64,000 bases of DNA from Mobula hypostoma (taxonomy: Eukaryota): assembly GCF_963921235.1 (NCBI RefSeq), contig NC_086097.1:165728001-165792000 (forward strand). The letters are read 5' to 3'. This document shows, piece after piece, positions 1 to 37,508 of the stretch. The notes under the pieces were generated by a model. The model saw only the letters and a list, made by a program, of their open reading frames with translations. It was not told where the DNA came from and searched no databases. Position 1 is the stretch's first letter. Each line of letters starts with the position of its first letter. The position numbers were made by a program, and so were the translations under genes.

Positions 1-2680
1 GACAGCAAGCAAGGAGTACTGGAATATTTAGGTCAAGAGGTAAGAATAAGATAGATGAGGAACTCAGCAGCTGATGAACTTTAATAGCAAGAGTAAAAGG
101 AAGTTGATGGCAGTTATATACAGGGCTCCCAACAGTGGCTGGGAGGTGGACCACAGATTTCAACAGGAAATAGAAAAGGCAAGTCAAAAGGGCAATGTTA
201 TGGTAGTCAGGGGAGATTTTAATATGCAGGTTGATTGAGGAAAATCAGGTTGGGAATGGATCTCAAGAGAGTGAGTTTGTTGAATGCCTAAGCGATAACT
301 TTTTAGAGCAGTTTGTCGTTGAGCCTACTGGGGGATCAGCTGTACTGGATTGAGTGTTGTGTAATGAACCAGAGGCGATTAGGGAGCTTAAGGTAAAAGA
401 ACCCTTAGGAACCAGTGATCGCAATATGATTGTTTCGAACTTGAAATTTGATAGGGAGAATGTAAAGTCTGATGTAGCAGTATTTCAGTGGAGTAAAGGA
501 AATTACAGTGGTATGGAAAGAAGTTGGCCAACGTAAACTGGAAGGAGATGCTGGCAGGGATGACAGCAGAGCAGCAATGGCGTGCGTTTCTGGGAAAATT
601 GAGGAAGGTGCTGGACATGTGTATTCCAAAAATGAAGAAGTACTCAAATAGTAAAATAGTACAACTGTGGCTGACAAGGAAAGTCAAAGCTTTTGTAAAA
701 GCAAAAGAAAGAGCAAAAATTAGTGGGAAGATAGAAGACTGGGAAGTTTTTAAAAACCTACAGACAGCAGCTAAAAAAAAAATCATTAGAAGGGAAAGAT
801 GAAATATGAAAGCAAGCTAGCAAATACCAAAGTGGATAGTAAAAGTCTTTTTCCAAGTATATTAAAAATAAAAGAGAAGTGAGAATGGATATAGGACTGC
901 TAGAAAATGAAGCAGGAGAAATAATAATGGGGGACAACGAGATGGCTGCTGAACTAAATGAGTATTTTGCGTCAGTCTTCACTGCGGAAGACACTAGCAG
1001 TATGCCTGATGTTGTCGTGTGTGAAGGAAGAGAAGTGGGTGCGATTACTGGTACAAGTGAGAAGGTGCTCAAAAAGCTGAATGACCTAAAGGCAAGTCAC
1101 CCGGACCAAAGGATCTGCATCCTAGGGTCTGAAAGAGGTGGCGTTTGAGATTGTGGTGGTATTAGAAATGATCTTTCAAAAATAATTGGATTGTGGCCTG
1201 GTGCCAGAGGACTGGAAAATTGCAAATGTTACTCCACTCTTTAAGAAAGGAGGAAGGCAGCAGAAAAGAAATTATAGACCAGTTGGCTTGACCTCAGTGG
1301 TTGGGAAGATGTTGGAGTCAATTGTTAAGGATGAGGTGATGGAGTATTTGGTCACACAGGAAAAGTTAGTACCAAGTCAGCATGGTTTCCTTCAGGAAAA
1401 ACCCCGCCTGACGAATCTGTTGGAATTTTTTGAGAACATTGCAAGTAGGATAGATAAAGGGGATGCAACAGATGTTGTATATTTGGACTTTCAGAAGGCC
1501 TTTTACAAGGCGCCACACATGAGGCTGACTTGCCAAGTTCAGAGCCCATGGCATTACAGGAAAGTTACTAACATGGTTAGAGGATTGGCTGATTGGTAGG
1601 AGACAGTGAGTGAGTGGGGAAAAAAAGGATCCTTTTCTAGTTGGCTGCCAGTGACTAGTTGTGTTCCGCGGGGGTCGGTGTTGGGACCACTTCTTTTTAT
1701 GCTGTATATAAATGATTTAGATGATAGAATAGATGGCTTTGTTGCCATGTTTGCAGATGTTACGAAGACTTGTGGAGGGGCAGGTAGTGTTGAGGAAACA
1801 AGTAATATGTAGAAGGACTTAGACAAATTAGGAGAATGGGCAAGAAAGTGGCAAATGAAATACAATGTTGGAAAATGAATGGTCATGCACTTTGGTAGTA
1901 GAAATAAATGTGCGGTCTATTTTCTAAACGGGGAGAAAATCCAGGAATCTGAGATGCAGAAGGACTTGGGAGTCCTTGTGCAGTACACCCTACAGGTTAT
2001 CTTGCAGGTTGAGTCGGTGGTGAGGAAGGCAAATGCAATGTTAGCATTCATTTCAAGAGGTCTAGGATACAAGAGCAAGGATATATTGCTGAAGCTTTAT
2101 AAGGCACTGGTGAGGCCTCACCTTGAGTATTGTGAACAGTTTTGGGCCCCTCATCTTAGAAAAGATGTGCTGGCATTGGAGAGGGTCCAGAGAAGGTTCA
2201 CAAGGATGATTCTAGGAATGAAAGGGTTATCATACGAGGAACGTTTGATGGGTCTGGGTCTGTACTCGCTGGAATTCTGAAGGATGAGGAGGGATCTCAT
2301 TGAAACCTTTCGAATGTTGATTGGCCTAGACAGAGTAAATGTGGAAAGGACGCTTCCCATGGTGGGAGATTCTAGGACAAGAGGGCACTGCCTCAGGATA
2401 GAGGGGCATCCATTCAAATAGATGCGGAGAAATATCTTTAGCCAAAGGGTGGCGAATTTGTGGAATTTGTTACCACATGCAGCTGTGGAGGCCAGGTTGT
2501 TGGTGTATTTAAGACAGAGATGATAAGTTCTTGATTGGACATGGCATCAAAGGTTATGGGGAGAAGGCTGAGAACTGGGATTGAGGAGGAGAGAAAAAAG
2601 GATCAGCCATGATTGAATGGCGGAGCAGATTTGATGGGCCAGATGGGCTAATTCTGCTCCTATATCTTATGGTCTTATTG
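1..2680 (+). mobile_element. CR1-clade LINE, decayed ORF2 (end of endonuclease, RT) and 3' tail; runs off the window start
   Basis: ORF fragments VPEDWKIANVTPLFKKG, VVYLDFQKAF, VPRGSVLGPLLFMLYINDL, MFADVTK, LYKALVRPHLEYC; frameshifts and stops; cttatggtcttat tail. Confidence 0.93.
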
Positions 2681-11059: not shown

Positions 11060-11131
11060 TTCCATTCGCTGGCTCCAATGTATTACCGTGGATCGGCTGC
11101 AGCTGTTATAGTTTACGATATCACCAATGAG
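11060..11131 (+). CDS. RAB31: RAB31 internal coding exon (72 nt, phase 0/0): [24 protein letters not shown]
   Basis: Acceptor ttttctttcccactag and donor GAG|gtaaaa. The translation matches the Rab5/22 subfamily switch II-beta4 region; FHSL and AAAVIV fit RAB31 rather than RAB22A (FRAL, AAAIIV) as I recall them. Confidence 0.95.
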
Positions 11132-17584: not shown

Positions 17585-17640
17585 GAATTGTCTTGATGTG
17601 CTGTGAAATGAGGAATTGTCTTGATGTGCTGTGAAATGAG
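17585..17640. repeat. Perfect 28-bp tandem duplication GAATTGTCTTGATGTGCTGTGAAATGAG x2
   Basis: Seen directly in the sequence. Confidence 0.95.
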
Positions 17641-17734
17641 GATGAAACAATGAGAGAAAAGAAAGAGAGGGTTATGGCTTGAAAGTGTTCCCAAATCCAT
17701 ATTTTCCTGTAAACAGCAGGAGAATATGGAATTT

Positions 17735-17992
17735 CTTCTTTTTAAGCCCATCATCTGTACTGGAGCATAGACCACGGACAGCAGCTCACCAGAGTCCTCT
17801 CTCCTGGGCTAGTCTTTTGAGTTTTTCTAGTTGTAGCCCAAGTTTTTGGTGCATCATTCCTCTCTCAGGGATGAAGTCTGTGGAGCTTTTGTTGCCGGTT
17901 CTGTAACACTGAGTTTTTACGGGATGGGGTTGCTAGCTCCATGCCCAGCTCTCCTTTTGCAGCCAGGCTTAGGACTGTTTAATGGCAGAATT
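17735..17992 (-). mobile_element. Short RTE-tailed retroposon (SINE-like) with a twister-ribozyme-derived 5' end
   Basis: TSD ATGGAATTT at 17726-17734 and 17995-18003; RTE-like 3' end with a GAA-repeat tail; twister-like 5' sequence. Confidence 0.75.
17941..17992 (-). ncRNA. Degenerate twister ribozyme, 3' cleavage product only
   Basis: Minus strand AA-TTCT-GCC-ATTAAA-CAG-TCCTAAGC-CTG-GCTGCAAA-AGGA-GAG. P2 (TTCT/AGGA) and P4 (CAG/CTG) pair; loop TCCYAAGC and GCC match the recalled twister core; the GAGGG segment is damaged. Confidence 0.65.
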
Positions 17993-19240
17993 GAATGGAA
18001 TTTAGTAGAGCTTAAAAGAAGTCAAGAAGAAAGGCAGAAAAAAGAAACAAATTATTTTCAGATAATGCCTGATGAAATCTAGTTTTCAGCATCCTGAGCA
18101 TAGTGTTTGCTGGACCAAGGTAACGTGTGTCCCAAGATCTCGAGCAGCAATCTTTCGATGCGGAATGTTTTCTATTTCTGACTGCACTTGGGGTCAGAAA
18201 GAACAAAACGGTCACATGCAACATTCCTGATTTAGAGATGGTCCAGATGTTCAGCTCCAGGCAGAGAAAATAAATCTTTTATCTTTTCCAGCCACAGGGC
18301 CACCCTGTTGTGAAGAGGGTGTCTGTCATAGTTCAGCAATCTGTCTGCTCCTGTTCTGGTGCCTGTTATGGTGAGAAATTTCAATTTGGAGGATGGAAGC
18401 TCAATTGATGATTTACCAGTTTACATGACAACCTCTGGTTAACCAGTTGTAAGAGTATTGCATATCAAGGTCTTCCCTTAGGAGCCACAGAGTAAACCAG
18501 TTTTAGCCTATTGAGCTTGTTAACTATTATGTATTATATTAATCCCGTTTATCAGCACTTGGCAATTCAAGTGCTCGTGTGGATGCCTCTTAAACCTTTT
18601 CGAGTACCTGGTTCCCCTGCCTAACCACTGAGCATCTTCCAGATTACAACCATTCTCTGGGTTAAAAAAAAACAGCAACGAAAGGTTACTCCTTGAAATT
18701 CGAAAATTTGAAAGGAAATAGTGGCTTGCTTACAGTGATCTGAAGGGTAAAAGATTGCAGAGGAAACTTTGTGGAATGCAGTGGTAGAATAGATGTTATG
18801 TAACTGGACTCATTCTAAAGAAGCCCGGACTAATGATGGTTATAAAGCAGTTGGTGCTGTGAAATGCATTGGTGCTATGCAGCAGTGAGTTATCACAGAC
18901 CACAATTAGGTGAAGAAGGTAAAGAGTGACCATGAAAGTGGAGGGGGAAAATGTTTGGAGAAAAATCAGTACCACATCTCACTGGAAATTACTATAGTGT
19001 ACAGCATATAAATAAACAAATGGACAAGGAAATCTGGAAAAAAGTTCCAAACTGGGCAGGAAATAGACTTCAGCAGAGATGGTTTTCAGGAGTTCTATGT
19101 GCATACATCACAATTTACATCATTAGAACCTGCCATTTCAGCTCAATATGTCATATTTTTAAATTTCTAAACCAAACTACTGAATTGTGAGGGTGCAACC
19201 TTTAACTTCATGCTCCATCAAGTTACATATTTTCTCTCAG

Positions 19241-19347
19241 GAATCATTCTACACTTTGAAGAAATGGGTAAAGGAACTGAAGGAACATGGGCCTGAGGAC
19301 ATTGTGGTTGCGATTGCTGGAAACAAGTGTGACCTAGCTGACATGAG
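19241..19347 (+). CDS. RAB31: RAB31 internal coding exon (107 nt, phase 0/2): ESFYTLKKWVKELKEHGPEDIVVAIAGNKCDLADM(R)
   Basis: Acceptor ttttctctcag and donor AG|gttggt. Contains the G4 motif NKCD and is in frame with the previous exon. Confidence 0.96.
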
Positions 19348-19793
19348 GTTGGTATCTGTACTGCAAAATCGAGGTTGCTTTAAATGAGAATATAATTATT
19401 TTTGTCCTTTGGTATCATAGTATTGTGTCTGTGTAAAATACTGATGTTACTTTGGTTTGTTCTTTGCTATTCTGCCAATATGCAGTATTAATTGTTTTGC
19501 AAATTCTAGTGGATTGTTCATGTGATAAATGAAGTGATGCCCAGTTATCTTCACTGTAACAGGCCACCATTCAGTGCAAGGTAGGTACAACATCGTGTGG
19601 TCACAGTTAGAAAGAAAAATCACTCCTTATGTGTGAATGAGTAATAGCCGGTATCAGAAAATTTTTATTTCACAGTGTGTGGTTGCTAATTAGGCGAATT
19701 ACTTGTTCTTCAACCTCAGAGCTCAAGATGTTGTTATTTATAATCTCTCCCTTGCTAATCAGTGTGACTAATGATCTTCCCTTACTCTTCCAG

Positions 19794-36347: not shown

Positions 36348-37508
36348 TTGTTGTGCATCCGTTAGTCTCGCGAGGCCATGGATCTGCGCCTGGAAAGTCT
36401 TGCTTCAATCTGTGTTGGTAGAGCAGTGTCTGTTGTGGCTGTAGAGGCCCATACTGAAGTGACAGTCTTAGCTGCAGCGACTGCACTTGAAGGTGCTGTC
36501 CTTCAGTGTTGTCTTGGTGCCATTTTTCCGACGAGTGCGCTTTTCTTCAGCAGCAAGCCTCAGCTTCTCTTTTCTTCTCTTTTTAGACCTCTGCGTAGTT
36601 CCAGCCTCCAGCAAGAGCGATCGCTTGCAATGTCCTCCCACCTCTCGATGTTTATGTTCAGTGACTTCATGTCTCTCTTGTAGACATCTTTGAAATGAAG
36701 ATGGGGCCGCCCTTGTGCTCTCTTGCCGGAGGCCAGTTCCCTGTACAGCAGGTCTTTCGGGATCCTCCCGTCTGACATGCGATGTACGTGGCCCAGCCAG
36801 TGGAGACGGCGTTGTTGGAGCAGGGTGAAGAGGCTGGGTATCTGGGCACGGGCCAGGACCTCATTGTTGGTGACTCGGTCAACCCACTTGATGTCCAGGA
36901 TGCGTCTCAGGCTGCGAAGGTGGAAGGCATTGAGACGCCACTCGTCTGGAGTAGAGGCTCCAGGTCTCACTGCCAGAAAGCAGTGTGCTGAGGACGCAGG
37001 CCCTGTAGATTGCAACCTTGGTGTGTGTCGTCAGCTTTTTGTTCTCCCAGACTCTCTTTGTCAGCCTGGCAAATGTTGAGGCTACTCGTCCGATCTGTCT
37101 GTTGATCTCGGGGTCTAGGGAGAGGCTGTCTGTGATGGTGGAGCCAAGGTACGTAAACTTGTGAACTACCTCCAGCTCGTAGTTGTTGTTGGCAGTGGCA
37201 GGGTGGTGCTCAATGCCTTGGCCCAACATGTTGGTCTTCTTCAGGCTGATGGTCAAGCTGAAGTCCTGGAGAAGCTGTCCATGAGGTGTTGGTGTTGCAG
37301 CTGCTCTTCAGAGTGTGTTGCCAGTGCTGCGTCGTCTGCAAACAACATGTCCCTGATGAGTACTTCATGGACCTTGGTTTTCGCCCTCAGCCGGGACAGT
37401 CTGAACAAGCTCCCATCCGATCTGTTGTGGAGGTGGACACCATCAGTTATGTTCCAAAGGCGTGCTTCAGCACCCTGTTCAGCACCTTCTTCGCAGTCAT
37501 GCTGAAGC
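36348..37508 (-). mobile_element. 5'-truncated RTE-BovB-clade LINE inserted in a CR1 3' fragment
   Basis: Peptides LSRLRAKTKVHEVLIRDMLFADDAAL, TISLKKT, FTYLGSTI, RLHWLGHVHRMSDGRIPK; 11-bp TSD ACAATTACAAT (36337-36347, 37509-37519). Confidence 0.92.

Follow-up and report, generated by a model that had tools for sequence, protein, structure and literature searches.

A short retroposon of Mobula hypostoma composed of two ends of an RTE-type LINE, with a twister-like core at its 5′ end

The window, as we call the whole stretch of 64,000 nucleotides analysed here (Mobula hypostoma, contig NC_086097.1, positions 165,728,001 to 165,792,000, forward strand), contains a short minus-strand insert with neither a tRNA head nor an intact open reading frame (ORF), which raises the question of where such an element comes from and how its 5′ end is made. 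The reading that we favour, with a probability of about 0.75, is that the insert is a decayed short copy composed of two ends of one LINE, and that its 5′ end was made by self-cleavage of an inherited twister ribozyme. The principle is already known: RTE LINEs with a twister at the 5′ end have been published, as have internally deleted LINEs that carry a ribozyme head.

Anatomy of the window copy and its host context

The features of the copy and of its surroundings are listed below in window coordinates.

17735..17992, minus strand: short retroposon copy of 258 nt without an intact ORF, of the ~140-nt-junction subfamily (84% identity to the family majority line over 241 nt)
17993..18003, minus strand: upstream target-site duplication (TSD) of 11 nt, whose last base is position −1 (C) and abuts the first A of the element (sequence inspection and TSD analysis)
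17722..17734, minus strand: downstream TSD of 13 nt, 2 nt longer than the upstream TSD (sequence inspection and TSD analysis)
17945..17992, minus strand: decayed core of the twister-P1 type, lacking both P3 and the 5′ strand of P1 (15.5 bits in Rfam, E 3.8; family alignment)
17924..17942, minus strand: predicted hairpin of 6 bp with a 7-nt loop, directly behind the ribozyme (compensatory pair types in relatives)
17853..17992, minus strand: segment from the 5′ end of the parent LINE, its first ~140 nt (comparison with full-length parent copies)
17741..17852, minus strand: segment from the 3′ end of the parent LINE, the last ~35 codons of its reverse-transcriptase (RT) ORF (translation and parent comparison)
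17735..17740, minus strand: short (AAG)n tail (sequence inspection; tail types of the family)
19241..19348, plus strand: exon of a Rab31-like host gene, context outside the element (36-residue exon; Rab-31 is the best match, E 2.4e-17)

An earlier reading made from the sequence alone (the sequence-only reading) had described a 258-bp minus-strand insert between TSDs with an RTE-like tail and no ORF. Both TSDs were located, with the start of the element at 17992 and an AAG-type tail at 17735, and the duplications (18003-17993 and 17734-17722) are identical except for a 2-nt indel. The description of the tail was correct and even understated, as the last ~110 nt represent the coding end of the parent RT ORF. 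The copy indeed has no intact ORF, but these ~110 nt derive from coding sequence, which in the window copy (17741..17852, minus strand) carries one frameshift and one stop.

Additional plus-strand exon pieces with Rab-31 as the best match were found near 11081 and 19852; together with the exon at 19241-19348 they place the element in an intron, antisense to a Rab31-like gene. The host pre-mRNA reads the strand opposite to the ribozyme of the window copy, which is an ordinary decayed insertion. Directly downstream of the element, the window shows a 29-nt direct tandem duplication (17585-17642). Other decayed LINE fragments encoding parts of RT or endonuclease are present at 50187-51864 (plus strand), 1159-1713 (plus strand) and 36948-37268 (minus strand), with 24-36% identity to the ORF of a sister LINE described below.

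A parent LINE in the same genome

The genome searched comprised 3.48 Gb in 200 contigs. A DNA search yielded 3,349 first-look candidates, 40 of which were scored and showed 76-81% identity, besides the window copy itself. Given this number of candidates, the window insert is not a chance resemblance, and the short family can be estimated at thousands of copies. An exact 30-letter head pattern was found at 64 genome sites, and its reversed control at none.

The tail peptide, which is the C-terminal end of the RT ORF, matched one public protein at 60% identity, and this protein carries a DUF6451 domain. A Pfam search with the 43-residue tail peptide returned a chance match only, and a PDB search with protein P0001 gave no match. 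Searching the genome with the DUF6451 protein retrieved mostly the younger sister LINE, with the 3′ end of the element present at the DNA level in one of 20 loci. The RT stretch of the parent locus gave 43 genome matches from 77 candidates, and five of the 12 parent loci that were extended proved to be full-length, with the same AAC start and the same final ~110 nt as the short element. Three of them are 3,001, 3,064 and 3,075 nt long, and two further ones contain insertions (range 3.0-3.7 kb). A parent search with the inner stretch of the other subfamily retrieved short copies only. Every parent ORF seen is broken, and this ORF (AP endonuclease and RT behind the ribozyme) is matched along its length by the 1018-residue ORF of the sister family. 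Judged by sequence, the parent is an RTE-type LINE of 3.0-3.1 kb, dead and residing in the same genome; it is assigned to the RTE clade by its architecture, DUF6451 and the match of its head to Perere-3.

The short element corresponds to nucleotides 1 to ~140 of the parent fused to its last ~110 nt. At least two more junction types are present. One of them defines a longer subfamily, which retains ~229 nt from the 5′ end and ~80 nt from the 3′ end and has an extra common deletion of ~12 nt, also found in copies picked by the head alone. The junctions sit at short repeats (microhomologies) common to the 5′ and 3′ ends of the parent, which would allow repeated independent deletions. The 5′ end retained by all subfamilies, 140-229 nt, compares with ~50 nt for the ribozyme.

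By this make-up, two ends of one LINE joined by internal deletion, the short family is classed as a bipartite, ORF-absent, non-autonomous LINE (SIDE-like). The SINE-like family that had been proposed is thus not a SINE of separate origin: it belongs to a described class, and arose by internal deletion from a LINE that resides in the same genome. A Pol III SINE with a tRNA, 5S or 7SL head was ruled out, as the head is the LINE's own 5′ end. The sequence-only reading was right that a tRNA head is absent: no tRNA gene was found in any of the ten loci scanned, Rfam scans of copies gave no match to 5S or 7SL, and neither the window copy nor the family majority line contains a B box. A non-LTR retrozyme, which would consist of tandem repeats with hammerhead ribozymes that give circular RNA, was also rejected, the copies being single, dispersed and TSD-flanked with no hammerhead match and just local head arrays.

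Spread and age of the short family

The tails of 90 short copies were of the AAG type in 40, TAAG in 21 and TAAC in one (28 unclassified), whereas 8 of 11 parent 3′ ends are of the TAAC type; in addition, none of 30 head-picked copies runs on into the parent ORF. Because of these distinct tails and the absence of ORF sequence behind the picked heads, the short forms most likely spread from masters of their own. One could instead suppose that there were no masters and that each short copy arose when the parent RT jumped across the parent RNA at a microhomology, as the position of the junctions at repeats common to both parent ends and the presence of at least three junction types would suggest. 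We give this a very slim chance, considering that the tail repeats are unlike the parent's, that the longer subfamily shares its second deletion even in head-picked copies, that these copies never enter the ORF, and that 3,349 short candidates compare with 77 for the parent RT stretch. Shared junctions, TSDs and tails of its own indicate that the short family was amplified as a unit, most likely from its own masters.

Judged from its copies, the short family is old and looks extinct. Divergence from the majority line outside CpG was 10.0% (4.6-15.8%) in the 50 top-scoring copies, a sample that biases the value low. A core that is intact by strict pattern was present in 3 of 74 copies, and conservation of the head (0.887) was no better than that of the rest of the element (0.884-0.929); these two observations give no sign of selection after insertion.

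Five of the 30 head-picked copies (L125, L131, L132, L151, L154) consist of the first 55-110 nt only, without the 3′ part. At locus L018 (G000:C45:4586643-4589883), one short copy has about 12 head-to-tail 54-nt twister units at its 5′ end, each beginning with AAC, and similar head duplications were seen in L051, L057 and the parent copy L113. Near another family copy, L016:2746-2917 (minus strand) matched snoRNA ZL1 with 59.3 bits (gathering score 64) and E 1e-11.

A twister core without P3

Compared with the Rfam twister-P1 model (RF03160), the window copy scored 15.5 bits (E 3.8), which alone is not significant, and a scan of the whole window at the gathering score gave no match. The 20 copies most like the window copy included four twister matches at E < 1 (25-33 bits). 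A genome-wide RF03160 search, in which 62 of 198,712 candidates were scored, produced nine matches with 39-47 bits (best 46.9, E 3.7e-6), and every one of the nine is the head of a family copy. None of the copies scored reached the gathering score of 67.2 bits, the best one falling ~20 bits short; the alignments place the loss in the absent P3 and the variable P1, both of which are part of the model, while the conserved letters match. The twister head claimed by the sequence-only reading therefore stands at the family level, where the core is present and the better copies are significant, but not for the window copy taken alone. The covariance-model check on the family left the proposed fit unrefuted, with the best copies at 39-47 bits and under gathering.

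Well-kept copies and the parent have a conserved L1 (AA after the cut, GAGGG), P2, P4 and the two pseudoknots, and an A·G mismatch in P4 is found in both family and parent. The family core equals the Schistosoma mansoni twisters of Table 1 in PMC8501958 in P2, L4, both pseudoknots and L1, without P3. When 18 rows were aligned, 87.6% of cells were paired as the twister structure requires, against 38-66% when it was slid, with the structure drawn from the same sequences and three metagenomic rows misaligned in P2. Changes from G-C to A-U in the family P4 were discounted as covariation, as CpG decay on both strands yields them. As far as sequence can tell, the head of the family is a P3-less twister core, in the parent and the short forms alike.

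The 5′ boundary and the scissile bond

Among 104 distinct copies, the alignment begins within the first 13 nt in 94. Column conservation is 0.82 and 0.80 at positions +1 and +2, 0.43 at −1 and 0.27-0.39 farther upstream. TSDs were searched in 83 complete copies, anchored on bases −11 to −3, with strict and loose thresholds. Strict TSDs were found in 22 of the 83 (null mean 0.26), and the match continued at −2 and −1 in 18 copies each, at +1 in nine and at +2 in five; with the loose threshold there were 42 TSDs (null mean 3.8), with 32, 33, 19 and 9 matching at −2, −1, +1 and +2, respectively. A clear TSD that stops at −1 was also seen in two of the five full-length parents. Since the TSD match extends through −1 and drops at +1 and +2, the first base of the element is the A that follows the scissile bond, which is the 5′-OH product end mapped for T-variants in the experiments of PMC8501958. 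When 50 copies were chosen by their internal or 3′ sequence, the alignment began within the first 5 nt in 32 and within the first 13 in 41; the remaining nine include truncated and rearranged copies. The proposal that 5′ ends accumulate at the AA next to the scissile bond is thus borne out at single-base resolution by column conservation, TSD ends and this unbiased sample.

A pile-up of start sites would also be expected from a fixed transcription start, and it is the coincidence with the scissile bond alone that points to cleavage. The 5′ end might accordingly be the plain transcription start of an internal promoter, with the twister an inactive passenger in this lineage, and the scores below gathering and the P4 A·G mismatch of family and parent would fit such a history. 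We regard it as highly unlikely, as the boundary coincides with the scissile bond to the base, the A·G variant is present in metagenomic heads too, P4 mismatches are tolerated in the assays reported in PMC11662667, and Perere-3 heads with the same core cleave in those of PMC8501958. Self-cleavage remains the preferred origin of the 5′ end.

T is in excess at −1 (40 of 94 copies versus 29% background, p 0.004). An element-derived U at this position would argue against cleavage; this candidate was rejected, as the T recurs in the downstream TSD (5 of 5 strict, 14 of 15 loose), which identifies it as target-derived. At insertion sites, the element is preferentially preceded by T, and the downstream TSD is mostly followed by a purine (18 of 22), so that U-AA is often rebuilt.

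The missing P1 strand

The lack of the upstream P1 strand in the window copy had been taken as a sign of decay. This interpretation fails: the 5′ strand of P1 is inherited by no copy and by no parent, the insertion site supplying it, and P1 was dispensable in twister assays described in PMC8501958 and PMC11662667. Across 94 copies, the flank provides no P1 pair in 43, one in 30 and two to four in 21, and no closed P1 helix belongs to the element itself, its 5′ strand coming from the flank. The high-throughput assays of PMC11662667 report that flaws in P1, P2 and P4 and all four bases at −1 are tolerated, whereas pseudoknot mismatches are harmful.

The window copy was also called probably inactive, which is plausible, though not for want of P1. 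It has retained A+1 and A+2, but shows a net loss of 2 nt; bases are missing on the 3′ side of P2, and the longer pseudoknot contains a mismatch. The copy is likely to be weak or dead as a ribozyme.

Proposed mechanism

Under the preferred reading, several short masters would have arisen by internal deletion at short microhomologies. Pol II transcripts initiated upstream, most likely by host read-through, would cross a master, and the twister, needing one or a few flank bases, would cut before AAC and so set the 5′ end. The endonuclease/RT of the parent would bind the shared 3′ end in trans, and target-primed reverse transcription would generate TSDs of ~10-13 nt, the new upstream TSD becoming base −1 and a chance P1 strand. 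The boundary and the anatomy are visible in the copies themselves; from them we infer cleavage, the source of transcription and trans-mobilisation.

Comparison with known systems

T-variant twisters with assayed cleavage have been described in S. mansoni, where they head the RTE-clade LINE Perere-3 (Liu et al. 2021, PMC8501958). From that description, the present family resembles Perere-3 in the core (P2, pseudoknots, L1), in the TSD directly before AA that supplies the 5′ strand of P1, and in a short-repeat tail and lack of target specificity. In contrast, the published Perere-3 elements are full-length and have a twister with P3 and demonstrated activity, whereas the present family, known from sequence, lacks P3, resides in a vertebrate and consists mostly of ORF-less derivatives of ~255 nt. 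A 20-nt head stretch was absent from the supplement of PMC8501958.

Bipartite, ORF-absent, non-autonomous RTE LINEs, including RTE-N2_Lch, RTESINE2, MAR4_MD and Bov-A, were reported by Kojima (2018, PMC5786205), who proposed a 5′ ribozyme as a possible reason why such derivatives keep the 5′ end. As presented there, they share with the present family the RTE 5′ and 3′ ends joined by internal deletion, a length of 200-300 nt and the lack of an RNA-gene head. They differ in that no ribozyme is identified in them in that account, and in that the 3′ segment of the present family is coding sequence. The stretches of coelacanth RTE-N1/N2 given in the supplement of PMC5786205 show no resemblance to this family.

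The R2 SIDEs of Drosophila (Eickbush and Eickbush 2012, PMC3414825), which are released from a co-transcript, and NARTc of Trypanosoma cruzi (PMC3383444) are, by these reports, likewise short and internally deleted, with a 5′ self-cleaving ribozyme and a LINE 3′ end, and moved in trans. Their ribozymes are described as HDV-like, not twister, and R2 SIDEs as rare and rDNA-specific, whereas the present family is dispersed, with thousands of copies as estimated from candidates. De la Pena et al. (2020, PMC7761336) stated, as work in preparation, that retrotransposons of the RTE superfamily have conserved twisters at their 5′ ends, truncated yet active, which likely process these elements out of upstream transcripts; the statement itself gives no data and no mention of non-autonomous derivatives. 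Twisters from fishes, amphibians and reptiles are reported in PMC11662667. In the literature searched, which excluded Dfam and Repbase, no paper on a twister-headed non-autonomous RTE derivative was found; the supplement of PMC11662667 may hold the head among its tested fish twisters.

The two published observations, twister-headed RTE LINEs and internally deleted LINEs with a ribozyme head, meet in a single abundant vertebrate family whose parent resides in the same genome. This makes testable Kojima's question of why only a few LINE clades, those with 5′ ribozymes, yield bipartite derivatives, and the family offers many natural P1-less and P3-less twisters with different flanks for assay.

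Relatives and a hairpin behind the ribozyme

The sister LINE is younger than the parent and has an intact 1018-residue ORF with endonuclease, RT and DUF6451 domains. Its copies (L081, L185-L201; for example G000:C50:29863519-29863699) show ~90% identity to one another, their 5′ ends line up, and a different structured head of ~80 nt is placed on the same downstream block as in the twister family. Rfam scans of five copies at E 0.5 gave no match for this head, and a by-eye comparison of topology with HDV-like ribozymes gave no fit. It is possibly another ribozyme class, and heads may be swappable.

The predicted hairpin directly behind the ribozyme is common to the parent, the sister LINE family and metagenomic relatives. 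It shows compensatory pair types at four of six positions in 24 hand-picked sequences, several of which are out of register, and may represent a second RNA signal. The hairpin bears on a dual system in which the retained 5′ ~140 nt would contain an internal Pol II promoter, with transcription beginning at the element or upstream of it; the twister would then do no more than trim the transcript, and host read-through would not be needed. There is precedent in L1Tc/NARTc, where the first 77 nt are described as serving as promoter and as HDV-like ribozyme (PMC3383444), Kojima (2018, PMC5786205) expects LINE 5′ ends to be transcribed by Pol II, and the subfamilies keep more of the 5′ end than the ribozyme alone. 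The conserved block behind the ribozyme, however, covaries as an RNA hairpin and not as a DNA motif. A promoter of this kind seems unlikely to us, and it concurs with self-cleavage as the way in which the 5′ end is made.

A wider reading is possible but doubtful: the family might be a promoter-less, SINE-sized class of vertebrate elements whose spread to thousands of copies relied on nothing but twisters freeing them from host transcripts. A preference of the parent for integrating where it cuts after T (the target-derived T at −1) would rebuild the canonical U-AA cleavage site and a chance P1 at each new site. Ribozyme heads would be modules that can be exchanged on an RTE 5′ hairpin common to them, and would be the reason why RTEs yield bipartite derivatives.

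A metagenome scan with a pattern of the 5′ half of the core gave at least 124 matches in at least 119 loci, and in most of them the 3′ strand of P2 and GAGGG, both outside the search pattern, follow. P2 shows compensatory changes in these loci: its second pair among the 18 distinct metagenomic types is U-A in ten, A-U in six, C-G in one and unpaired in one, and the P4 A·G mismatch of the family also occurs in these heads. An RTE-type ORF was found behind a P3-less head in at least 14 loci, with 65 loci having at least 400 nt to search. The contigs L214-L332 include two repeat families with a P3-less twister head and 14 and 9 different flanks, respectively, all starting with AAC, and other clusters among them retain a full P1 helix. 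The metagenomic locus L253 has a head nearly identical to that of the present family followed by an endonuclease ORF, and L284 looks internally deleted.
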